A DNA stretch of 63,269 bases, filler included, from Candidatus Sysuiplasma jiujiangense (GTDB lineage Archaea; Thermoplasmatota; Thermoplasmata; Sysuiplasmatales; Sysuiplasmataceae): NCBI GenBank assembly GCA_019721075.1. It is 3 parts of 3 records of this genome, joined end to end, with 100 filler letters (N's around TTAATTAATTAA, not from the genome) between each part and the next. Parts side by side here need not be neighbours in the genome. Positions count along the whole stretch, not along the records: positions 1 to 23,145 come from JAHEAD010000021.1; 2 more parts are not named here. One strand, 5' to 3'. Shown one piece after another: positions 1 to 23,145 of the stretch (position 1 is the stretch's first letter; each line of letters starts with the position of its first letter). A program made the translations under genes and the position numbers. The notes beneath the pieces were generated by a model, which saw only the letters and a list, made by a program, of their open reading frames with translations, did not search any database and was not told the origin of the DNA.

Positions 1-99
1 TGGTCATAGGGTTCCCACCGGTCCGTCTTCAGCGCCGTCAATTCTTCCTTCGTCTCTTCTTTCACTACTATGGTCTTGTCCATCTAAAGCCACCTACAG
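1..99 (+). repeat. Terminal direct repeat, copy 1 (assembly overlap of a circular contig)
   Basis: TGGTCATAGG...CCACCTACAG matches 23047-23145 exactly; 99 bp is a common assembler k-mer. Confidence 0.97.
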
Positions 100-115
100 A
101 GAGATACAGCAAGAC

Positions 116-130
116 TATACTTAAAGTTTT
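116..130. promoter_or_regulatory. Bidirectional TATA region between divergent RHH genes
   Basis: TATACTTAAAGTTTT lies ~25 bp upstream of ATG 149 (+) and reads TTTAAGTA on the minus strand upstream of the AGGTGG RBS and ATG at 83. Confidence 0.5.
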
Positions 131-148
131 GTGTGCGCCTACAGATGG

Positions 149-319
149 ATGATGACTGTAAGAGGCGAAAAGATAAATGTCCTCGTCCCCGAGGGGATGC
201 TGGCCAAAATAAACGACATCCTGAAAAGGGACCAGTCATGGATCTCAATTCAGGAATTTATAAGACAGGCGGTCGCAGAGAAGATCGAGAGAATTGAAAA
301 GGAGCACGCGATAGGATGA
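149..319 (+). CDS. Ribbon-helix-helix (CopG-like) transcriptional regulator
   Basis: KINVLVPEGMLAKINDIL...SIQEFIRQAVAEKI is a typical RHH pattern; the only clear + strand gene in the element. Confidence 0.8.
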   Translation: MMTVRGEKINVLVPEGMLAKINDILKRDQSWISIQEFIRQAVAEKIERIEKEHAIG

Positions 320-597: not shown

Positions 598-906
598 TCA
601 TTTGCCCTGGTGTTCTTCGTTCGCCTTCCGGAGGGTTATTGCCATGTTCACTGCGTCCTCGAGGCTCCGGTTTCCATGTTCCCTGGCAAGGTCTCTTGCC
701 TTGATGAGGTATTCCATCTTGATTTTCTCCCGCCCATTCGCGCCCTTCTCGAATGCCCTGTCTCCGTATTCCCGGCGGACGTACTCAGTAACCCGGCCTG
801 GATGCCTGATGGATCCCTGGATCCAGTACGGGTCATGACGGATTGAATTCTTCCTCGGTGTTACCGGGTAGTGTTCTCCTCCCTTTCTGGACCTGAAATC
901 TGCCAT
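598..906 (-). CDS. Fusellovirus VP2-like DNA-binding virion protein
   Basis: WIQGSIRHPGRVTEYVRREYGDRAF...IKMEYLIKA...RSLEDAVNMAITLRK mirrors SSV1 VP2 as recalled (WVQKAIKRPGRVHRYLMRLYGKRAF...IKASYLDKA...RSLLSALLLAKRLKR). TTTATGTA box ~25 bp upstream. Confidence 0.8.
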   Translation of the reverse strand: MADFRSRKGGEHYPVTPRKNSIRHDPYWIQGSIRHPGRVTEYVRREYGDRAFEKGANGREKIKMEYLIKARDLAREHGNRSLEDAVNMAITLRKANEEHQGK

Positions 907-12139: not shown

Positions 12140-12171
12140 GAATGGATATATTCAGAGGGTTATATATACAT

Positions 12172-15144
12172 TCATCTTGGCCTTCTGATCATGAGGTATA
12201 TACCGGCGGAAACACCGGCGGCCGAGGTAGCTATCAGGATCCAGAAGACATAGACCGGGAAAAAGTTCATCGGCGGCGCAGGCTGCACGGGGTTATACGG
12301 TGGCGGAGGCGACACATAAGGCGTTGCTGAGAATACTGGATCAAGAGGCATAGTTGCAGGGTTGTACGTTGCGTTCAACACGCCAGTGGAACTTGCGTCC
12401 TCAATGAATGATCCGAACAGTGAGCCGTTGTCTATTATCTGGATTCTGTACTGCTCGCCGGCATTCCCGGTGAATTGCAGGTCGACCGGAGGTGCCTTGG
12501 AGCTATTCACGCCAACCTGTATGTATGATGGCTCAACTGATTCCGAGTAATCGTAGCCTTTCCAGATGAAGTTGGGCTGTGGGCCGCCTGCAAGTCCATT
12601 TGAGTAGGAGATTGTGGGAACATTGTTAAGGATCTCGACGTCAGGAGTGATATTATATGTCCATGTCTTGAGATTCCAGATTGGAGCTGTCACCATTTTA
12701 CTCGTGTTGAATATATACTGCGGATTACTCAGGGAAACAGTATCATTGTAGAATGTTGGCATCTGGTAAGCAATCTGTCCTATGTAATTGCTTGCCTCTG
12801 CTGTCATGTTTCCAAGCGGTACATATGTCTCTATCGGTGAAGGCGCATAATAAAACAGGTTTCCTCCGATATGGTTGATGGAATGCCCTCCTGTGATGCT
12901 GCCGTATCCCTGATCACCACTTTCGTTATTGTTTGAGCCAATCGGGATTATTTGATTGTTCAGGTTCTCGAACACGTTGTCATATATGTAGTTGCACCCT
13001 GCCCAGTCCACAATATCCCATGTGTATGGCACTATAAGCGTTGAGTTCGGCCCCTGATCGTAGGAATAATCATTCATGAAAAGATTATGTGAAACATTCG
13101 ACTGTATATTCCCTTCGCCGAGGAGGACTGCGACTGGATCTGTCTCTGGCGCGAACGGACTGCTTCCGATAGGGACGGCCTGGAATGTGTTATACATAAC
13201 ATACAGATATGAAAGTGCAAATTTCGGATAAGGGACGTTCATGTCTTCGATGTCCTCCCCGATACCGACGTAGTAATGCGGCGATATGTAATCCATTGCG
13301 CTTTGGTTATAATATGTGTACGAAAATGTATCGTTGGTGTAATAAACGTAACTTGGATAAACTCCATTAAACATCTGGGCTGTGGTAGAACCGACTGCAT
13401 TCACCAAGACGAAATTGGAGAATATATCATGAGAAAACGTTGCCGTGATAGAAGATGCCGTACCGAAATGCAACATGCCACCCATATCTATCTCTGAGTA
13501 ACTTATATTAAACCAATTACCATCAGGATCAATGCAAACTGAATCTACGTTCAGCGTCATCAACTGAGGTATAGTATAGTTGAAATCTATCCAATCTTGG
13601 TACATCTGACCTATGCCCCATGATCGAGAGCTTTCTGTTGTGATAGGGTAATCAGGTATAACTGAGTAACTCATATTCGATATTGTTTCTGTTGAGTTGT
13701 AAAATGTGTCATGAAGCGCGTAGGTTGCGGCAAGCATCGATGACGAAACGTATGAATACTGCAAATATCTATATACGGAACTACTATCAACATCTTCTAA
13801 GTATGAACCGCTCACAGTGATATTTTTATTTGACGATGATGCACCGAGATTTATCTCATACATTCTGGTGCATTGGACGTTTACTATTCCGTTTGTGGAG
13901 TATTTCTCACCGACGATAGTATCGTTTACCAGAGTGATACTGCTGACTTGCGAAGAACTCCCTTTCGAAAAGATGTTTAGTACGAGGCCACACCTATCTG
14001 AAAAACCCATCACATTGGAATTTTGAATTGTTACATTTCCATTGTAGCCCTGGTAACCGCCCCCAAATTTTATCGTTATATTGACATGATTGAAAACAAG
14101 CGAAAGGTTGGGTGCTCCAAAAAAGACCTTGCTGCCAATCACGATGGTACCACCTGTAACCGTTGTATTTTGCGTTATCGCCCAGTTATTACTTCCAAAT
14201 GAAGTTGGGTTTGTAACTGGAATCTGAGTTCCTGACACATCCGCGGTCGATGTCGTATAATATCTTATAGGATTATACTCTTGGTAGGAGTACGTATTGG
14301 ATGAAGGAGTAAACCCTCCTCCTGATGAATTCACCATCCCATAGAGAACACCGGATATAGGATTTCCATATCCTTCCAGCCTAATGTTATAAGATAACGC
14401 AGTGTCGATCCCTTCGAATTCCACACTTCCATTTGATAGTGTGCTCCCCCAGCCAAGGAGTTTTCCGTTATTGGGACTTGTGGTGTTGTACAGTGAAATG
14501 TTCATCTGTGGGTAAGATTTCGGCGGTTGTGAGAGATCATTCAGAGAAGAGTATGCTGCCCAGATGGTTCCGGTGCCTCCATTATTAATCGTTACTGTAG
14601 CATAAGATGATGGAATCATGTAGATCGTTTTACTCCCGCCTGTTATGTAGATCATCTGCACAAAATTTTCATAGGAAGAAGAACTCGTTGTTGCCGATAC
14701 TGCATACCATCCAGGAGGGACAGAGAATGAAGCAATACCGGTTGCATTTGTTTTAGATGAATATGTAGCTCCGGTCGTTGTATTGTAGAGAGCAACTAAA
14801 ATCCCAACGCCTGCCGAATGAGATGAAAGGGTGCCGTTGTAAACAGTTACTGTGAATGATATATTCGAGGGGGGAGAATTCCACCATGAAGGTGCAGTAT
14901 TCATAAGAGCCGTAACATTCGATGGTGCGCCGAGTGAACTCAAAGGTACAGTAGGTCCTTGTGTTCCCTGCGCCCCGACATTCGATGGCACTGTCGGGGT
15001 TCCATACTGGTATGGGAAGGTAAAGGATGTCGAGGCGGATGGAATAGATGAAGCGTACGTGCCACCTGAATGTATAACCCCAAATGCCATAACTACGAAT
15101 AGGCCCACAATCAATAACGAAAGAATTTTACTCCATAATTTCAG
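12172..15144 (-). CDS. Large surface protein / putative receptor-binding adhesin (beta-helix-like repeats) with C-terminal TM; probable CTG start
   Basis: Signal peptide, Asn/Tyr/Ser-rich beta repeats (SHNLF, YDNVF, GGNLF), Pro-rich linker, TM then RRPR; visibly lower GC than its neighbours. Confidence 0.8.
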   Translation of the reverse strand: MKLWSKILSLLIVGLFVVMAFGVIHSGGTYASSIPSASTSFTFPYQYGTPTVPSNVGAQGTQGPTVPLSSLGAPSNVTALMNTAPSWWNSPPSNISFTVTVYNGTLSSHSAGVGILVALYNTTTGATYSSKTNATGIASFSVPPGWYAVSATTSSSSYENFVQMIYITGGSKTIYMIPSSYATVTINNGGTGTIWAAYSSLNDLSQPPKSYPQMNISLYNTTSPNNGKLLGWGSTLSNGSVEFEGIDTALSYNIRLEGYGNPISGVLYGMVNSSGGGFTPSSNTYSYQEYNPIRYYTTSTADVSGTQIPVTNPTSFGSNNWAITQNTTVTGGTIVIGSKVFFGAPNLSLVFNHVNITIKFGGGYQGYNGNVTIQNSNVMGFSDRCGLVLNIFSKGSSSQVSSITLVNDTIVGEKYSTNGIVNVQCTRMYEINLGASSSNKNITVSGSYLEDVDSSSVYRYLQYSYVSSSMLAATYALHDTFYNSTETISNMSYSVIPDYPITTESSRSWGIGQMYQDWIDFNYTIPQLMTLNVDSVCIDPDGNWFNISYSEIDMGGMLHFGTASSITATFSHDIFSNFVLVNAVGSTTAQMFNGVYPSYVYYTNDTFSYTYYNQSAMDYISPHYYVGIGEDIEDMNVPYPKFALSYLYVMYNTFQAVPIGSSPFAPETDPVAVLLGEGNIQSNVSHNLFMNDYSYDQGPNSTLIVPYTWDIVDWAGCNYIYDNVFENLNNQIIPIGSNNNESGDQGYGSITGGHSINHIGGNLFYYAPSPIETYVPLGNMTAEASNYIGQIAYQMPTFYNDTVSLSNPQYIFNTSKMVTAPIWNLKTWTYNITPDVEILNNVPTISYSNGLAGGPQPNFIWKGYDYSESVEPSYIQVGVNSSKAPPVDLQFTGNAGEQYRIQIIDNGSLFGSFIEDASSTGVLNATYNPATMPLDPVFSATPYVSPPPPYNPVQPAPPMNFFPVYVFWILIATSAAGVSAGIYLMIRRPR

Positions 15145-15208
15145 ATTTCATCACCTTCATGGTATGTTTTAATCAGGTTTAGTTATAGTCAGTGGCTTAT
15201 AAATACAT

Positions 15209-15412
15209 TCATCTTTTAAGCAATATTATGTTTCTGGGGAGATTCTTTATCTCCACCTGCATTGTGAGGCATTCCCGCACATGGTACCGTAGTGCCTTGT
15301 AGGGGATGCCAATCTGGAATGCGATTGCCCTTCCCCACGTCTGCCTTTTTTTCATGACGGCTGCGAGAATGATCCGGTCTACGGGGTGGGGCAGGTTGAC
15401 CTCCATGACCAC
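15209..15412 (-). CDS. Small HTH-like protein
   Basis: DRIILAAV...RAIAFQIGIPYKALRYHV resembles an HTH. Confidence 0.5.
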   Translation of the reverse strand: MVMEVNLPHPVDRIILAAVMKKRQTWGRAIAFQIGIPYKALRYHVRECLTMQVEIKNLPRNIILLKR

Positions 15413-15433: not shown

Positions 15434-16051
15434 TCATCTCACCTCGTAGATTTTCTTCCCGTTCACAGTGTTCCTGATGAATTCTGGGCTCGGCTTGCTG
15501 TAGTACCGGAGAATCGTGGATGCGCTATCACCCGTGTTCTGGATCACTATCTCCATCGGGATTCCAAGTTCTCTGGAGAGCGATATGTATGTATGCCGGA
15601 TTGCATGCCAGCTCTTCTTCTTCCCTAATACCCGTGCAGTCCATGTCTGGATCTTCCGTTCTATCGTCTTGTGTGAGAATGGGAACAGCTTTGGATCCTT
15701 TCTCTTTTCGAGTGAGTTTATGTATCTTTTCAGGGACGCGAGTACCTCGTCTGGGACATAGATGTCCCGATACCTGTCCTTCTTCTCGTCCCAGACATGG
15801 ATCCGTCCCTCCGGCCCGTTTATGGATATTTCCTCCATGGATGCAATCTCCGAGATCCGCATCCCGGTGTAGAGTCCTGTCAGGATGAGAGTGTAATCGG
15901 AGATGTTGTCGGTTGTCCTCAGGATTGAATTTGCTTCCTCTATTGTCAGAGGGTCGTTCGAAGTCCTGTTTCTTGTTGTCTTATTTGCTGGCATTTTAGG
16001 ACTTTCTTTCTTTCTGACTGTCCTCTTTTTCTGAGTGGTATATATTCTCAT
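15434..16051 (-). CDS. Tyrosine recombinase 2 (catalytic domain only); start uncertain
   Basis: TGMRISE, DEKK, HAIRH, LRYY motifs; the usual LGH position reads TGD. Confidence 0.85.
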   Translation of the reverse strand: MRIYTTQKKRTVRKKESPKMPANKTTRNRTSNDPLTIEEANSILRTTDNISDYTLILTGLYTGMRISEIASMEEISINGPEGRIHVWDEKKDRYRDIYVPDEVLASLKRYINSLEKRKDPKLFPFSHKTIERKIQTWTARVLGKKKSWHAIRHTYISLSRELGIPMEIVIQNTGDSASTILRYYSKPSPEFIRNTVNGKKIYEVR

Positions 16052-16053
16052 TG

Positions 16054-16815
16054 TTACCTGCCCCCTCCTTTTTGTCCTAAACGTGAAGGAATAGGACAAT
16101 TATCCTGTGCCGTTTGCCTCACGTCACTAACTCCCCCAAACAAGGGCTTCCCTATCGGTTTATGGACTTCGAAATCCCAACTATATTTTTTACCTATTTC
16201 CTTAATCTGTTCTATAGTCGGAGTCTGATTATTCCTGATCCTCTTTTTAATTTCATCCCTCGATATGCCAAATTCCCATGAAAATACCTGGAATATACCG
16301 TAAAGGTCATCCTCATCGAATCCTTCATCGCATAGGGCATCAACCTCATAAAGCCTGCTTATGAATTTCTGGCATGAGGAATGGTAACAGAATGATTCGT
16401 ATGGATAATCGTCGAACCATTCATCGTACTCAGGAAGCCTCACATATCTTTCGTATTCCTCTCCTTTTGTTATTATTAGACCACAGATAGAACACGTGTG
16501 TTCCTTCTTTGCGATTGGATGGGTCCATGGCTCCCTCTCTTTCTTCGGGTGTTCTATCTCATGCTGTGACTGCAGGTTGTTCCTGAACTGCTTTAGAATA
16601 TCCGAATTCTGGCTATAGTCATATTTGATTGCAAACTCCCTTGAACATTTATCTGAACAATACACCTTTCTACCTGGTGCAAGGGGTTGGTCACAGTTGG
16701 CACATATGTGTTTCTCTTTTGAATCCCTGCGAATCCTCTCTGATTCCATTCTGATGGCTGTTCTTTTTTCCTCAACTTTCCTTCTTATTTCAATGGATAC
16801 TTTCATTTTCATCAA
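16054..16815 (-). CDS. Double zinc-finger protein
   Basis: CANC...YCSDKC and CSIC...HSSC motifs. Confidence 0.75.
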   Translation of the reverse strand: MMKMKVSIEIRRKVEEKRTAIRMESERIRRDSKEKHICANCDQPLAPGRKVYCSDKCSREFAIKYDYSQNSDILKQFRNNLQSQHEIEHPKKEREPWTHPIAKKEHTCSICGLIITKGEEYERYVRLPEYDEWFDDYPYESFCYHSSCQKFISRLYEVDALCDEGFDEDDLYGIFQVFSWEFGISRDEIKKRIRNNQTPTIEQIKEIGKKYSWDFEVHKPIGKPLFGGVSDVRQTAQDNCPIPSRLGQKGGGR

Positions 16816-17047
16816 CCTCCTCCTTATTTTTATTTGGCTTCAATTTAGAAATCTTTGGAACGCTGGAAGGGGGAGGCGTGGTATTTTGATATGCCTTTGT
16901 CTGTTGATTTTTGACTGATTGGGCGATGGCTGCCATTCTCAACGCTGAACGAAGGTCCTGGAGGATGATGTCCCTGATGGTTGGATCCGTTATCGTTCTG
17001 GAGATCTTTCGAGCTTCTACTAGAAGATCCTGGAGGTCGTCGGTCAT
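16790..17047 (-). CDS. Hypothetical protein (85 aa)
   Basis: ORF overlapping both neighbours within the operon. Confidence 0.6.
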   Translation of the reverse strand: MTDDLQDLLVEARKISRTITDPTIRDIILQDLRSALRMAAIAQSVKNQQTKAYQNTTPPPSSVPKISKLKPNKNKEEVDENESIH

Positions 17048-17940
17048 TTCATCCCTCCGGACGGCCCAAGGATTGATGTAATTGTGCCGAGCGCGCTTAT
17101 AACCTGGCTCATCTGGTCCTGAGTGATTGAGGCCTGTTTTGCCAGCTCGGTCGTTATTGAGATCTGCGTTGTCAGCGCTCCCAGGGCTTCCTTGAGATCC
17201 GTGGTCGCGAGCGCGAACACATTCTTCCGGTATTGCTCTGCATCCTGCGGTGAGGTCTTCCTAGCAACGAACTCAAGCTCAGGATCTCCCATGCTCGAAT
17301 CTGCAACTATCCGGGGTTTTCCTTCCTCGTTGTCTATCCTCATTTTTTTAACTATCTTTGCTATTGCATCATGCTCGAAAGCGAACTCCCTGGCCAGGAT
17401 GGCACCTGAGAGAACACCTCGGTCCAAACGCTTCAGCCGGAAGGTTGGGTATAATCTCCTGATCCTTTCCTCTACCTGTTCGGCAAATGGAATAATCTCT
17501 GACATTACGTCTGCCTCCTGTGATTTGATGATTGCCTTGCGGCTCCTGTATCTTATCATAAGATCGATTCCGATCACAAATGCCATTGTGGCCGCTATCT
17601 TTCCATAAACGATGAATGCAGACTGGTTCGTCCATATCATGTACTGCACTGGGGATTGCCCGAGCAGGATGTAGTACATCAGGTCTCCAGCGCCATTGAA
17701 TATCAGCGTATATGAATAGAGAGGTATCACATAGGATCTTGCGGCTATGCCCATCAGGATGACAACTGATGGCACCAGAAATCCGAACGTGAATATGTGA
17801 TAATTATTCCACTGGAGCGAGATGTCGTAAGGGAAAATTGTGTACTGCCACATGATGACATCGTAGTAGGAGAACATTAAGAAGACCGCAAGTGCTATAG
17901 GATAGTCGAGCTTATTCATCTGGGTGCCCGTGTCCTTCAC
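17044..17940 (-). CDS. 4-TM membrane protein fused to a C-terminal domain paralogous to ORF 18878-19861
   Basis: Four hydrophobic segments in the N-terminal ~130 aa; the last 159 aa align without gaps to the wHTH protein. Confidence 0.85.
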   Translation of the reverse strand: MKDTGTQMNKLDYPIALAVFLMFSYYDVIMWQYTIFPYDISLQWNNYHIFTFGFLVPSVVILMGIAARSYVIPLYSYTLIFNGAGDLMYYILLGQSPVQYMIWTNQSAFIVYGKIAATMAFVIGIDLMIRYRSRKAIIKSQEADVMSEIIPFAEQVEERIRRLYPTFRLKRLDRGVLSGAILAREFAFEHDAIAKIVKKMRIDNEEGKPRIVADSSMGDPELEFVARKTSPQDAEQYRKNVFALATTDLKEALGALTTQISITTELAKQASITQDQMSQVISALGTITSILGPSGGMK

Positions 17941-18332
17941 GATTTCACCTTTCCTTTTTTATTCATCGCATTTTTATAATTGATTTCAGACGTGGTTTTG
18001 GGTGGGGGGTTAATAGTTGTTCCTTCTGGCTGCTTAAGTTTAGTCAGTTCGATGAAATCCGAGAGCCTGAGTGTGATCCTGGCATCCATCAATTTTTCCC
18101 TTTTGCCATGTTGGATTAACATCGGAATCTTTCCTTCCTCCTTTGCCTTCTCCAATATGCTTACCCAGAGTTTGGTTGGAAGTGACTGTTTTCCGTCTTT
18201 CATCTCTATGTAGAAATCTTCGTGAAGGGTGTCGCTTTTTGTCTGATGTGACATGGATCCTGAGAATGGGTTTCGTTTTGTTCCGAAGATCTTGGAGAAC
18301 TTGAGTTCGTTATCTTTCCAGGTTTTTACCAT
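17937..18332 (-). CDS. Holliday junction resolvase-like PD-(D/E)xK nuclease
   Basis: WKDNE...RNPFSG...SD...FYIEMK...GKIPML pattern typical of viral Hjc-like resolvases. Confidence 0.75.
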   Translation of the reverse strand: MVKTWKDNELKFSKIFGTKRNPFSGSMSHQTKSDTLHEDFYIEMKDGKQSLPTKLWVSILEKAKEEGKIPMLIQHGKREKLMDARITLRLSDFIELTKLKQPEGTTINPPPKTTSEINYKNAMNKKGKVKS

Positions 18333-18877: not shown

Positions 18878-19861
18878 TCATTTCATCCCTCCGGATGGCC
18901 CGAGGATTGATGTAATCGTGCCGAGCGCGCTTATGACCTGGCTCATCTGGTCCTGGGTGATGGAGGCCTGTTTTGCCAGCTCAGTTGTTATTGAGATCTG
19001 CGTTGTCAGTGCTCCCAGGGCTTCCTTGAGATCCGTGGTCGCAAGCGTTAGAGTGTTGGACCTGATATGCTCCATGTCCTCGCTCGAGGTTTCCCTGTCC
19101 ACTGTCTCGAGCTCCGGGAACCCTTTGCTCTGGTCCACGATTATCCTGGGCTTTCCCTTCTCGTTATCGATCCTCATGTGCTTCACCTTTTCGGCTATCG
19201 GGTGGTGCTCATAGGCGTATTCCCTGGAAATGATTCTGCCGGAAAGTATCCCCCGATCCAGACGTTTTAATCTGAAGTCACTGTGGATCCTTCGGATTTT
19301 TGATTCCACCTGTTCAGCGAATGGCATGATTTCCGACATTATGTCCGCTTCCTGGGATTCGACATCGCCGGAGGCCTTGAGGTATCTCTGAACGCCTGTT
19401 ATTATGAGTGACTTTGTGGAGAGGATTGCGGTGAAATCCTCAAACTGGATGATGTTCTTCGACCAGTGCTCGAGTGGGACTATCTTCGAAGGATGGTCCT
19501 TGAATGATATGATAGCTGGATCTCTGACCGGGTTCACCAGGTCGAACTTGATCTGGAGGCGGTGAAGGCGAATCTTCATGTCCGACATTTTCTCACGGGG
19601 TGTTGCATTAATAGACCCCCCCGTGAGAGGATTCCTCACGGGGTGTTGCATTAATTCCTGGCCTGATGGAAGAACTGTATAGAGAACCTGATTAGAACGG
19701 ACCAGGCGAGCAACGAAGCCTCTTTTCTCCATCTGCCTGATATCCCTCAGCACTGACGACGGATTGATGCCGAGAGAAGCCGCTATTTTCCTGATTGGAA
19801 GACCTCTCGACAGGCCCTCGAGGATCACCATGTGGGTGTTCCCTACCCGGAAGGCCCTCAT
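18878..19861 (-). CDS. Winged-HTH DNA-binding protein (candidate replication initiator)
   Basis: IRKIAASLGINPSSVLRDIRQMEKRGFV wHTH; overlaps the iteron-like repeats. Confidence 0.75.
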   Translation of the reverse strand: MRAFRVGNTHMVILEGLSRGLPIRKIAASLGINPSSVLRDIRQMEKRGFVARLVRSNQVLYTVLPSGQELMQHPVRNPLTGGSINATPREKMSDMKIRLHRLQIKFDLVNPVRDPAIISFKDHPSKIVPLEHWSKNIIQFEDFTAILSTKSLIITGVQRYLKASGDVESQEADIMSEIMPFAEQVESKIRRIHSDFRLKRLDRGILSGRIISREYAYEHHPIAEKVKHMRIDNEKGKPRIIVDQSKGFPELETVDRETSSEDMEHIRSNTLTLATTDLKEALGALTTQISITTELAKQASITQDQMSQVISALGTITSILGPSGGMK

Positions 19862-20025
19862 GGTGGTTTCCTCACAGGTGTTGCATTAATGGTGTTGCAT
19901 TTATCCTCACGGGGTGTTGCATTAATAGGCGATAAAAAAAGGTGGTCGGGGCCGTGATTTGCTGGCTCCGGCGTGGGTGTTGCATTAATGCCTACCCGTG
20001 AGCTCACGGGGTGTTGCATTAATTC
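19592..20025. repeat. Seven copies of GGTGTTGCATT(A/T)AT, four within the exact longer CTCACGGGGTGTTGCATTAAT, plus palindromes
   Basis: Copies near 19592, 19635, 19871, 19891, 19906, 19975 and 20003; perfect palindrome CCCGTGAGCTCACGGG at 19995-20010. Confidence 0.9.
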
Positions 20026-20976
20026 ACTGAACAAGACCAGAAGGGCTTTCTCTTTCAATTCACCGGGCGGATCTTCATCCTCATCCTCCCGACTGGTTCC
20101 ATCGGCATTTGAGTGGTCCGTTCCCCGTCGGTCCATACCGTTCAATCCCGGAGCTTTCTGGGAGTCCAGGGCAATACGCGCAGCCTCGATGGCATCTCCC
20201 TGGGACGGATGCAGGTAGATTGACGTGGAATCAAGGTCCTCATGGCCAAGGAGCCTTGAGACATACAGGATTGATACGCCTCTTTTCAGCAGGTCGGTTG
20301 CGTAAGTATGACGTGCCATGTGAGGGTGGAATTTCACGCCTGCGGCAAAGGCGACATCCTGGCATATCTTTCGGAAATAATCGTATGACATCCTCCTGTC
20401 TGCCTTGGTCGTGAACAGATAGCCCAGGTCTTCCCTTCCCGATGGTGCCACCCTGTGCGGGATGTATTCCTGGATTGCCGTCCTTGCCTGGATCGGAAGG
20501 TAGATCTCCCTGACCTTCTGGCCTTTTCCCTTTACCGTTATGGTATTGGGACCGATGTCTGATATTTTCAGATCCACCGCTTCGCCCAGCCGGATGCCAG
20601 TGCCAAACAGGAGGGAGAACATGCAGTATTCGCGTGGGCCCTTCCTCTTCGCCGTTGCCATCAGGCGACGGACCTCCTCGGGACCGCAATACTGGATCGT
20701 GAACTCGGATCCGTATTCCTTGAAATACTTCATCTCCTCGATTCCCTTCCATCGGAGCCACCGGTTCAGGATCTTGATGTAGCCGTTGGCGGTCTTGTTT
20801 CCCTTGCTCTGCCATATCGCTCGAATGAACATCTGTGCCGCTTCGAGGCTCATCGACCCGTCTGAGTGGACCGAGAAATACTCTATCTTCCTCAGAGTCT
20901 GGCTCACCGTGTGGGGGCTGAATCTCTGCTTATCGATCATCCATTTCTGAAATTCTTCCATTTCATTCATTATCAT
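19858..20976 (-). CDS. Tyrosine integrase (Xer-like, SAM-like N-domain plus catalytic domain) with a repeat-derived C-terminal tail
   Basis: GTGIRLGE, KGKGQK, HPHMARHTYAT, LLGH, TSIY; GGGAGG RBS before ATG 20976. Confidence 0.92.
   Translation of the reverse strand: MIMNEMEEFQKWMIDKQRFSPHTVSQTLRKIEYFSVHSDGSMSLEAAQMFIRAIWQSKGNKTANGYIKILNRWLRWKGIEEMKYFKEYGSEFTIQYCGPEEVRRLMATAKRKGPREYCMFSLLFGTGIRLGEAVDLKISDIGPNTITVKGKGQKVREIYLPIQARTAIQEYIPHRVAPSGREDLGYLFTTKADRRMSYDYFRKICQDVAFAAGVKFHPHMARHTYATDLLKRGVSILYVSRLLGHEDLDSTSIYLHPSQGDAIEAARIALDSQKAPGLNGMDRRGTDHSNADGTSREDEDEDPPGELKEKALLVLFSELMQHPVSSRVGINATPTPEPANHGPDHLFLSPINATPREDKCNTINATPVRKPP
20111..20138 (+). other. Candidate attP core resembling the 3' end of an archaeal tRNA-Ala
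   Basis: TT-CCCCG-TCGGTCC-A (20121-20135) fits T-loop end, T-stem, acceptor strand with U70 and discriminator A; framed as an 11-6-11 imperfect inverted repeat. Confidence 0.55.
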
Positions 20977-21241
20977 ATTCCTCCCATTCTTCGCCGTCCG
21001 GAGAGGCGATCTCGTCCTCCATTGCTTCAAAACAACTGCTGCACACCCCATATTTTGGGATATATGTGAAATCCTCAATTTCTATCCCAGCGACGAAACT
21101 GCCACAACTTGGACAGAAGCCCGCTTCCCTTGCATGCTTTTCACAGAAGGCATTCCCGCGTGGTTCCTCAGGATAAAAAAAATAATTGCCCTCCTCTCCG
21201 CATGTCACACACTTGATAACTTCACCATTTCGGCGCGTCAT
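20963..21241 (-). CDS. Zn-finger protein (92 aa)
   Basis: CVTC, CEKH, CPSC and CSSC motifs; acidic tail. Confidence 0.75.
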   Translation of the reverse strand: MTRRNGEVIKCVTCGEEGNYFFYPEEPRGNAFCEKHAREAGFCPSCGSFVAGIEIEDFTYIPKYGVCSSCFEAMEDEIASPDGEEWEEYDNE

Positions 21242-21588
21242 TTCGCTATTGCCTCCAAAATCCTGGAAGCCTCGTCCTTCGTGAGGTCGTCGAGGCCTTT
21301 TCCCGTGAGATTGATTGCTCTCGCAATCTCTTTCGATTCGCTGTCCTTCCTTGATAGGATCCTCTCAATGAACGCCCTCTGGTTCGGCGTTATCTTCTGC
21401 GGATCCTTCTTTGGATCTTTTATACCTTTTTCCTCGAGCCAGAAATGATACGGCTTGAGGGCCTTCTCAATTATGACGGATTGAACCGCAGACATCTCCT
21501 TCGGGAACTTGAGCTTGATGGAAAGAACCGTCTGGAGGGCGTAGTCCAGCCATTCGTCGAAGGGATCCTTTTTTTTCTGTTCTTCCAT
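21238..21588 (-). CDS. Hypothetical protein with T-x-x-Q...LTK-x-EAS motif (as in tails of viral recombination proteins)
   Basis: ITPNQRAFIERIL...LTKDEASRIL. Confidence 0.65.
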   Translation of the reverse strand: MEEQKKKDPFDEWLDYALQTVLSIKLKFPKEMSAVQSVIIEKALKPYHFWLEEKGIKDPKKDPQKITPNQRAFIERILSRKDSESKEIARAINLTGKGLDDLTKDEASRILEAIAK

Positions 21589-21589
21589 T

Positions 21590-21766
21590 TCAGCGGACCT
21601 CCCTGCATGCCTGGATCATGTTTGGCGGGACGTCGAACTGGCTCGTTCGGGTCTTTACACAGACATGGCCGTTGTCCAGGACTTCGCCCGGATACGTGAA
21701 CTGGCCTCCGAAAATGACTATCCGGACCTTCTTTCCGATGTAATCCTTCATTTCTTCCGGGTTCAT
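21590..21766 (-). CDS. 58-aa protein, possibly Sm/LSm-like fold
   Basis: MKDYIGKKVRIVIFGGQFTYPGEVL resembles the Sm1 motif; ATGA coupling and GGAGG RBS. Confidence 0.55.
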   Translation of the reverse strand: MNPEEMKDYIGKKVRIVIFGGQFTYPGEVLDNGHVCVKTRTSQFDVPPNMIQACREVR

Positions 21767-21924
21767 TTCGGGATGCCTCCTGTCAGGATTGTCTTCGACC
21801 CATTGGGCCAGGTTTCGCCGCACAGGCACTCGTGGTCTCCGAGGTGATTCGCGGGACGCTTACAGAAGTGTTTATCGCCGGGAACTCCGAAAGCAGACCA
21901 GCATCGAGACTGGAAGTGCCTCAT
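21763..21924 (-). CDS. 53-aa Cys/His microprotein (not in ORF track)
   Basis: MRHFQSRCWSAFGVPGDKHFCKRPANHLGDHECLCGETW...; ATGA overlaps on both sides. Confidence 0.6.
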   Translation of the reverse strand: MRHFQSRCWSAFGVPGDKHFCKRPANHLGDHECLCGETWPNGSKTILTGGIPK

Positions 21925-22100
21925 TGCAGCTGCCCCCATCTTTCCAGGTTCTTGTTCTCCCTAGACCAGGATTCCAGAATCATGTTCCTGTAGCAGATCG
22001 TATGGTAGCTGTGCATTTCAAATGCGACCGTATAGACGTTGACATATCCTCCCTGGTGGACGTCTATTGGCGACTTGCAGACCTCGCATTTCTTTGTCAT
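21921..22100 (-). CDS. 59-aa Zn-finger microprotein (CxxC...HxxC)
   Basis: MTKKCEVCKSPI...YHTICY; ATGA overlap. Confidence 0.7.
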   Translation of the reverse strand: MTKKCEVCKSPIDVHQGGYVNVYTVAFEMHSYHTICYRNMILESWSRENKNLERWGQLQ

Positions 22101-22261
22101 GGTCCTGCCCCCTCCCAGTCGTCTTCGTCGTCCTCGCCTGGCCAAATGCCGTCCTTTGTAGAGATATGGCAACAGGATGGGCATACTCTCTGGCCACACG
22201 TGTCGCAGTCCGGGCACCTGCATGTTCGGAACTCTCCATCAGTATCACAGGTATCGCACAT
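22097..22261 (-). CDS. 54-aa Cys-rich microprotein with acidic tail (not in ORF track)
   Basis: MCDTCDTDGEFRTCRCPDCDTCGQRVCPSCCH...EDDEDDW; TGATG overlap. Confidence 0.65.
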   Translation of the reverse strand: MCDTCDTDGEFRTCRCPDCDTCGQRVCPSCCHISTKDGIWPGEDDEDDWEGAGP

Positions 22262-22431
22262 CAGAACCTCACCTGCCTTACCATTCCCCGAGAACTGTCG
22301 GGCGTCCTGGGGAAGGTATATCTATCTATCTCATGGTGTGTTGGATTATTTCGTCTATGTTCCTTATAGCCATGACGGGTATATTCGCGTCCACAGGAAC
22401 AAACAAAGCGAGCCATCGAGTGTTGGGGCAT
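22261..22431 (-). CDS. 56-aa C2H2-like microprotein (not in ORF track)
   Basis: FVCSCGREYTRHGYKEHRRNNPTHH; TGATG overlap. Confidence 0.6.
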   Translation of the reverse strand: MPQHSMARFVCSCGREYTRHGYKEHRRNNPTHHEIDRYTFPRTPDSSRGMVRQVRF

Positions 22432-22688
22432 CAGAATCCCAGCTCCTTTAGTATCTTACCGCATTGCTTGCACCTTACCACTGGAGGCGTATTGCCGTCT
22501 TCCACTAAATTGATTTCCTCCCTGTCATAATGCTTGCATTCCTCCTTGGTCTGTGCACGGACATAATTCAAGAGTCTTTCAAGGTCATAGTCGAAGCTAT
22601 TCCCGGGCCCGCCGATCTCCAATTTCTCACAGATTTGGTGTAGATCATACACCAGGATGGATCTCACCCGCTGATGCTCCATTGGCAT
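22431..22688 (-). CDS. 85-aa Zn-ribbon protein
   Basis: CKH...CKQCG motif; TGATG overlap. Confidence 0.7.
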   Translation of the reverse strand: MPMEHQRVRSILVYDLHQICEKLEIGGPGNSFDYDLERLLNYVRAQTKEECKHYDREEINLVEDGNTPPVVRCKQCGKILKELGF

Positions 22689-22819
22689 CAGAATCCAGCC
22701 TCCTTGAACTGCTTCCCAAGGGATCTCATGTCATCGTCGTCAAGGACACAGAGGAGCTTGAATTCATTCGAGATTGTCCAGAGCCCTATATCCAGTTGCT
22801 TCTCCAGCTTTATCGGCAT
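22688..22819 (-). CDS. 43-aa microprotein (not in ORF track)
   Basis: MPIKLEKQLDIGLWTISNEFKLLCVLDDDDMRSLGKQFKEAGF; TGATG overlaps and GGAGG RBS. Confidence 0.55.
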   Translation of the reverse strand: MPIKLEKQLDIGLWTISNEFKLLCVLDDDDMRSLGKQFKEAGF

Positions 22820-22971
22820 CAGAGGTCACCCTCCAGGCAGGATCCACATACTAAAAATCCGCAGATTGACCGCAGATCATCGATGGATCCACACCTTTCA
22901 CAGACCATCGGTCTCGGAAGGTCCTGGGATATTGATTCTACCTCAATGTCTATATCCTTCCGTGGGATCAT
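22819..22971 (-). CDS. 50-aa Zn-finger microprotein (not in ORF track)
   Basis: VCERCGS...LVCGSCL; GGAGGT RBS. Confidence 0.65.
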   Translation of the reverse strand: MIPRKDIDIEVESISQDLPRPMVCERCGSIDDLRSICGFLVCGSCLEGDL

Positions 22972-23129
22972 GCTGTCGAACCTCCGAGCTTCGCGGTTTG
23001 GGGTTCATTTTTTTCTTTCCCGGCTTCGATGAGTCTCCGTATTACGTGGTCATAGGGTTCCCACCGGTCCGTCTTCAGCGCCGTCAATTCTTCCTTCGTC
23101 TCTTCTTTCACTACTATGGTCTTGTCCAT
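22968..23129 (-). CDS. RHH/antitoxin-like DNA-binding protein (53 aa; its start is also at base 83, across the circular junction)
   Basis: MDKTIVVKEETKEELTALKTDRWEPYDHVIRRLI matches the archaeal T-I-x-V-x-x-ET...ESYDDVIRRLL regulator pattern. Confidence 0.75.
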   Translation of the reverse strand: MDKTIVVKEETKEELTALKTDRWEPYDHVIRRLIEAGKEKNEPQTAKLGGSTA

Positions 23130-23145
23130 CTAAAGCCACCTACAG
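23047..23145 (+). repeat. Terminal direct repeat, copy 2
   Basis: Identical to 1-99. Confidence 0.97.

Follow-up and report, generated by a model that had tools for sequence, protein, structure and literature searches.

The DNA window analysed here is a stretch of 63,269 nucleotides, filler included, binned as Candidatus Sysuiplasma jiujiangense (bin G000); positions 1-23145 are contig C14 of this bin, and the rest consists of other contigs. We identified on C14 a circle-closing terminal repeat together with genes for a fusellovirus VP2-like protein, a P-loop ATPase, large membrane-anchored proteins and two tyrosine recombinases, and on these grounds the contig most likely represents an archaeal virus in its free form. 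Its principal features are:

1..99 (= 23047-23145), plus strand: terminal repeat of 99 nt, which closes C14 as a 23,046-bp circle
84..319, no strand assigned: divergent control region, made up of intergenic 84-151 and a small plus-strand ORF at 152-319
598..906, minus strand: fusellovirus VP2-like nucleocapsid protein, a viral marker (PF25632, 3.7e-17)
15434..16099, minus strand: second tyrosine recombinase, shorter at 221 aa and located where the displaced chain nears its end (PF00589, 6.3e-11)
17937..18332, minus strand: Holliday junction resolvase-like gene, displaced together with the wHTH gene (phrog_2002, 3.2e-6)
18878..19861, minus strand: 327-aa protein with a MarR-like wHTH, a TBP-like domain and C-terminal helices (structure model, pLDDT 79.6)
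19589..19659, no strand assigned: two more copies of the repeat, within the wHTH gene where it encodes the low-confidence linker
19858..20970, minus strand: tyrosine integrase of 370 aa, XerA-like (SAM-like N-terminal part plus PF00589), catalytic Tyr252
19858..20121, minus strand: swappable integrase tail, residues 284-370, with an acidic stretch, a hydrophobic motif (EKALLVLFSE) and then repeat-encoded residues
19867..20027, no strand assigned: five copies of a GTGTTGCAT-containing repeat in the integrase tail, with a T7 run at 19934-19940 on the coding strand
20121..20135, plus strand: very probable attP core, equal to tRNA-Ala(GGC) positions 59-73 and exact in L028 and L114-L116
20136..20150, plus strand: flank of the core on the virus side, with TACCGT as its first bases; many relatives have a similar one (junction table)
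20963..23046, minus strand: chain of short, mostly overlapping ORFs upstream of the integrase gene, crossing the circle junction to position 83

The ORF chain upstream of the integrase gene is a putative early operon. On the minus strand, successive gaps from position 83 through the integrase to the wHTH gene measure 1 to -67 nt, and beyond the wHTH gene the chain continues with gaps of at most 59 nt, via the resolvase-like gene and the second recombinase, to position 15216. By eye, a TATA-like stretch lies at 116-126 within intergenic 84-151, and the small plus-strand ORF next to it is RHH-like, with PHROG matches of unknown function only. A search of 1-23145 against Rfam returned no matches, and a sigma-70 scan, with a model unsuited to archaea, gave results at chance level only.

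Several other features of the contig were recorded. The ORF at 17044-17940 (minus strand) joins a membrane-like N-terminal part to a second version, 65% identical, of the wHTH-TBP protein's residues 129-327; the final 170 nt are 94% identical, as in a recent duplication or module swap. A 32-nt repeat with a TATA-like core stands at 12147-12178 and 15184-15215, upstream of both structural gene blocks, and recurs in related contigs of bin G000; these two copies are likely late promoters. AT-rich repeats with a 9-nt period and an inverted partner, at 1316-1345 and 1445-1495 between the ATPase and VP2 genes, form a candidate rival origin or packaging signal.

The integrase matches PF00589 (6.9e-33, 114 bits), with support from its invariant residues, and falls below the cut-offs of PF16795 (14.4 bits, cut-off 27) and of the XerA equivalog NF040815 (143 bits, cut-off 220). 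The initial annotation had placed a candidate attP in the 3' region of this gene, and the sequence at 20111-20138 is as it described. The 15-mer at 20121-20135 on the plus strand spans codons 279-284 of the 370-aa integrase and lies 82 nt past the Tyr252 codon, downstream of the catalytic tyrosine as proposed, and its assignment to tRNA-Ala positions 59-73 is borne out by identity to real tRNA-Ala(GGC) genes at the loci named above. We consider the 15-mer to be very probably attP, with strand exchange probably taking place inside tRNA positions 61-73.

Relatives conserve the core and, to a looser degree, its 3'-side flank, which is possibly an integrase-binding arm. The inverted frame that had been described around the core (7/11) is present in the window, where 194 of 23,018 virus positions (0.84%) score as well, but it is not conserved: five related attP-type sites score 4, 4, 5, 4 and 2 of 11, and three attB sites score 2/11. 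With 2-5/11 in relatives the dyad is not a family trait, and we rejected it as a recognition feature.

We compared 104 integrase homologues (E <= 1e-20), which part ways directly after the residues encoded by the 15-mer. Antisense-tRNA tails are found in 37, the T-arm text continuing 30 of the proteins and 7 ending on its stop in another frame; 43 carry a long free-form tail like that of the window, 21 match neither tail class, and three lack the Tyr motif. The patterns that define these classes (regular expressions) were composed after the sequences had been inspected. Homologues of the integrated type are 280-334 aa long and retain the tyrosine, with all catalytic residues before the core. 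The closest of them, P0011, is 79% identical to the window integrase over 294 columns and continues with antisense tRNA-Ala exactly from the core. Joining the window integrase in silico to the tRNA locus of G457 yields a 313-aa protein with a 30-residue tail, the same length as the tails of P0011 and P0014 and, by eye, identical to them at 26 and 27 of 30 positions respectively; within the 11 residues encoded outside the tRNA, 7 (P0011) and 8 (P0014) are identical, again by eye.

Alignment scans retrieved 42 loci from metagenomes and 26 from genomes, of which the 21 with the family C-terminal motif were examined and the remaining 47 are distant. An antisense tRNA gene lies at the 3' end of the integrase gene in 12 of the 21 (11 distinct). 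The target is tRNA-Ala(GGC) at five distinct loci, among them Thermogymnomonas acidicola and UBA447; further targets are Ala(TGC) at two loci, Glu at two, Asp at one, and Cys in Acidiplasma aeolicum. The integrase frame enters the tRNA in 10 of these 12 loci and stops just short of it in L071 and L091. The other nine loci have no tRNA; at a distance of 82-152 nt past their Tyr codon stands a sequence resembling the core, in flipped orientation in three. The tRNA core is flipped relative to the integrase gene in L025 (5124-5136), L030 and L069; L025 has the window's 15-mer inverted, and in L030 a CRISPR-like array follows directly after the flipped core.

Two comparisons bear directly on the crossover point. 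At L028 the exact 15-mer ends the tRNA-Ala(GGC) gene (attL) and is followed by the same six viral bases as in the window, and L031 and L033 are integrated and free forms of one element that share only tRNA positions 61-73. A new integrase C terminus past a 3'-located att site was seen in P0011, P0014, L028, L066, L088 and G133. We dropped L072, L090/L058 and L110 as attP sites, since each has the look of an attR end joined, in a tandem array, to what is left of an older integrase; at G051:C1:620000-626500, L072 and L110, an older integrase has left its 3' part in front of the tail and wHTH gene of a newer element, an arrangement that mimics attP. In viral contigs, a single-protein scan found no relative, an alignment scan found four distant loci, and the 20-nt tRNA pattern gave no matches. 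A class-wide pattern search returned 3 of 401 genomes, each with 14/15 core bases at tRNA-Ala(GGC).

Six elements were recovered with both ends, sharing cores of 13-16 bp that extend from tRNA position 58-61 to 73-74: G335 (25.3 kb, tRNA-Asp), G430 (14.6 kb, tRNA-Asp), G296 (13.4 kb, tRNA-Ala), G051 (6.3 kb, tRNA-Ala), G436 (7.3 kb, tRNA-Glu) and G133 (two tandem copies, tRNA-Cys). G266 was left out because no integrase frame crosses its junction. In the rebuilt circles the integrase frame crosses the core by 15-50 residues in all six, and the tandem copies of G133 display attL, attR and, at the junction between copies, a natural attP. A wHTH homologue starts 370-960 nt behind attR, on the integrase strand and at the opposite end from the integrase, in five of the six. 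In G335 the wHTH gene (70%) and a block that corresponds to tail residues 303-370 (66%) are found 25 kb from the integrase. It is a reservation about these five that their integrases are distant (28-35%); G133 has the only close integrase of the set (50-53%), and another downstream module. Between attR and the repeats of the other five we noted a small ORF, roughly 50 aa long, that has a Trp and a DP/PP motif and the position of which recalls orf26 of SNJ2; in distant elements its resemblance to the tail motif was not significant, 4 of 40 shuffles scoring equally. Searches with the window's query did not find a wHTH homologue in five genomes with attL-type loci, and an attR for the Thermogymnomonas element was not found.

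In these relatives, the crossover at the tRNA 3' end, the restored tRNA, the intact catalytic core, the exchanged tail and the displaced repeat/wHTH block are all observed. Three claims made from the window sequence were thus seen directly in integrated relatives: that the catalytic domain is kept intact upon integration, that the tail beyond the retained part (87 aa, residues 284-370) is swapped, and that the repeat/wHTH/resolvase block is physically moved to the far end of the provirus.

The 327-aa product of the displaced wHTH gene has a TBP-like fold, with Foldseek matches to TBP at E ~1e-4 and VIA Z 10.8 (rmsd 4.4, 156 aligned); its single-sequence fold was poor. The Atlas held no match above 0.9 for this protein, and a PDB sequence search gave wHTH matches only. 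None of its 74 homologues is named beyond HTH, and for 61 members the 25 of 45 matching families listed were HTH families only, with neither DUF7845 nor Rep_trans among those listed. Invariant residues are R98, H100, E218, D243, S245, G247, E250 and E252, and across 61 sequences the TBP-like domain has no tyrosine in any column that is invariant or reaches 90%. The protein thus resembles the Rep_trans/Rep-Arvir initiators in its TBP-like fold but differs from them in having no invariant catalytic tyrosine. We regard it as a candidate replication initiator or activator, its role in replication being putative because of this missing tyrosine, and the family is possibly a new one of initiators or viral transcription factors.

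The repeat occurs in seven copies, five in the integrase tail and two in the wHTH linker. Relatives have their own element-specific repeat word at the same place, as would be expected of cognate binding sites.

We propose that C14 is a temperate virus with an integrase-spanned attP, a tRNA-Ala(GGC) target, a tail swap and operon cut upon integration, and a host in family f18, which belongs to the same class as G000 (Thermoplasmata) and is another family; we give this reading a probability of roughly 0.8. C14 would be the free circle of a temperate virus of Thermoplasmatales-type archaea, whose XerA-like integrase would recombine a core of 13-15 bp, placed within its own codons 279-284, with the host's tRNA-Ala(GGC) 3' end. 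Integration would restore the tRNA and leave the integrase gene pointing into it, with residues 1-283 and all catalytic residues kept, and the integrated enzyme probably stays excision-competent. Reading through the antisense tRNA, as seen in relatives, is predicted to exchange the 87 residues for about 30 in C14. The old tail, the repeats, the wHTH-TBP gene, the resolvase and the second recombinase would end up behind attR, about 23 kb away, an arrangement likewise seen in relatives. There the displaced genes would lose the early promoter and their translational coupling, and replication would stay off until excision rebuilt the operon. We propose this severing because the displaced genes and the integrase gene form one unbroken same-strand chain in the circle; that integration cuts the block off from promoter and coupling, and so holds replication off, is probable, though taken on its own it has only a little better than an even chance.

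The strongest competing account accepts the attP and holds that the overlap is genome compaction only: the tail would be read-through of origin or operator DNA, both enzyme forms would act alike, and the wHTH gene would be driven by its own promoter, with no switch. We take this to be a serious contender, if the less probable one. Its case draws on G335, in which the repeat block that corresponds to tail residues 303-370 is a separate frame behind a different integrase. Six homologues (P0022-25, P0027 and P0028) end at 280-283 aa with no tail at all, so that the tail is dispensable in part of the family. A T-rich, TATA-like match at 19938 lies between the core and the wHTH start, and four of five relatives have a T6-8 run in that interval; the wHTH gene could therefore have its own promoter, or terminator insulation. 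Compaction accounts less well for the acidic-hydrophobic-acidic motif, which recurs in the 43 free-form tails, distant ones included. Nor does it sit easily with the five wHTH-bearing elements, in which the order of integrase, core and wHTH gene is kept with distant integrases (28-35%) and four tRNA targets, or with the overlap between the integrase stop and the wHTH start in the window, L024 and L025.

A doubtful alternative, drawn by analogy, makes the tail itself the switch: as in the Myxococcus phage Mx8, the hydrophobic tail helix of the free form would tune oligomerisation, stability or directionality, and its loss would lower excision. In Mx8 the attP lies in the integrase gene, and integration gives the integrase (IntP/IntX) a new 3' end, with its activity changed and not abolished, according to the available portions of PMC6070905 and PMC4383910; PMC6070905 serves as the precedent. 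The tail motif is conserved in free forms only, as such a switch would have it, and the tail may affect the enzyme. Tail-less homologues nevertheless exist, and replacement tails vary from 1-2 to more than 50 residues.

That G000 is the true host, with attP a relic or acting on a mismatched tRNA-Ala, is improbable. The bin does hold C14 and ten short contigs with virus-related genes (C25, C29, C31, C33, C39, C43, C44, C49, C50 and C51), several of which may be misbinned virus pieces. All three of its tRNA-Ala genes are present (two with introns), however, and each matches the 15-mer at 11/15 only, tRNA positions 64-66, which belong to the minimal core, being mismatched at all three. Exact matches between tRNAs of the bin and the virus reach 12 nt at most, no other copy of the 15-mer exists in the bin, and the bin tRNAs were discarded as an integration target, none of them fitting. 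None of the 15 spacers of its CRISPR-like array matches C14 either (best 22/40), a weak argument.

The proposal that a host tRNA-Ala would carry the 15-mer therefore failed for bin G000 and held for other Thermoplasmata. Among 103 genomes of family f18, the 15-mer gave four matches, three at unoccupied tRNA-Ala(GGC) genes (L114-L116) and one outside tRNAs, against none for the reversed pattern used as a control; the three tRNA matches all fall in genus g100 (3/9). Related proviruses are present in f18 genomes, and a 37-nt spacer-like segment at the edge of a CRISPR array in one of them (G188:C37:7695-7731) matches the repeat region at 19870-19906 at 36/37. Because the tRNAs of the bin do not match, the host can only be inferred: judged from these sequences, it is probably a G457-like member of f18 and not G000, C14 probably being misbinned. 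No attL was seen in the contigs of four runs. One X3 contig (depth 3.4) is identical over 19901-20138 and continues with 13 unaligned letters past the core, which is a hint only, and no provirus of exactly this virus was found among the loci and genomes examined.

The weakest alternative, now largely refuted and given a very slim chance, is that the 15-mer resembles a tRNA by chance, or serves as a dif-like site of the XerA type (11-6-11), with no tRNA-Ala integration, for which the unmatched bin tRNAs, the one chance non-tRNA match in 103 genomes and the XerA-like integrase might speak, and against which stand the unconserved dyad and the agreement in position, orientation and sequence with the attL, attP and attR sites of relatives.

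The initial annotation had compared this arrangement with SSV, and we found Mx8 and SNJ2 to be closer. The suicidal integrases of SSV, pTN3 and pT26-2 share a recombination site within the gene, a tRNA target and an archaeal setting; as described in the available text of the review PMC8371274, they are split into int(N) and int(C), carry PF16795 and use att sites of 40-50 bp, whereas here the cut falls past the catalytic Tyr, in an enzyme with a PF00589 domain, and the core measures 13-16 bp. The window integrase is not a suicidal SSV-type enzyme. The pNOB8-type, XerA-related (type II) integrases have the same SAM-like plus PF00589 architecture and an enzyme core that remains intact after integration, but are defined in that text by an intact gene, whereas here the last 87 codons are exchanged. 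XerA/dif systems differ in their 11-6-11 dyad, which is not conserved here (2-5/11 in relatives), and in the NF040815 score (143 bits against a cut-off of 220).

Mx8 is alike in having attP in the 3' part of the integrase coding sequence and a new C terminus after integration. It differs in being a bacterial tailed phage with a demonstrated activity change, whereas any such change in C14 would be putative, and in that the tail lost here also carries the repeats that precede the next gene.

The haloarchaeal pleolipovirus SNJ2 uses a 14-bp core at a tRNA 3' end, with att downstream of int in its subgroups (PMC5861418, available text), and the accessible part of PMC13107129 describes a replication operon that excision alone restores and that has a start site within int, and experiments showing that such an operon break controls replication. 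Shared with SNJ2 are a short (~14-bp) core at the tRNA 3' end beside the integrase 3' end and an excision that joins int to the genes of the other provirus end; its key protein also combines TBP-like and MarR-like wHTH domains, and the gene order in the window would fit an operon broken by integration. In SNJ2-type elements, by contrast, the int stop precedes att (by 48 bp in subgroup I), which is spanned by a gene of its own, orf26, whereas here int itself spans the core. RepSNJ2 has an essential Tyr and a wHTH after the catalytic domain, whereas the window protein has its wHTH first and no invariant Tyr. SNJ2-type integration needs the accessory proteins Orf2 and Orf3; in C14, small ORFs lie upstream of int.

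In the open-licence literature, supplements aside (members may be listed in PMC8371274, Table S1, and PMC13107129, Table S4), we found no description of this integrase family or of an archaeal Mx8-like tail swap. As far as its available text goes, PMC8371274 treats split (suicidal) and intact types and leaves Mx8 unmentioned, and that of PMC12302457 covers islands at tRNAs of acidophilic archaea without attP detail. We describe the system as an Mx8-like tail swap in an archaeal XerA-like family together with an SNJ2-like operon break, the regulatory effect being predicted. Two switch designs known separately from other viruses would appear to be combined here, and the surprise is limited because each half of the mechanism has a precedent.

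A bolder extension, which we regard as unlikely in full, is that the 260 bp between attP and the wHTH start specify a regulatory integrase tail whose hydrophobic helix is conserved, contain element-specific iterons and couple the translation of int to a new class of initiator, such that one recombination changes the recombinase and silences origin and initiator, in a widespread and undescribed third class of archaeal integrases. Were it true, this class would stand between suicidal and intact integrases, and the initiator would consist of a wHTH and a tyrosine-less Rep_trans/TBP-like domain.

The family, with more than 100 homologues in Thermoplasmatales-type archaea, falls between the split and intact types set out in the available text of PMC8371274. 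Its protein tail is a simple marker of state, which tells free from integrated elements and names the tRNA target, and a probable host is assigned to a probably misbinned virus. The findings further point to an uncharacterised family of wHTH-TBP proteins with element-specific repeats, and to a 13-15-bp integration system for an archaeal group with few genetic tools.
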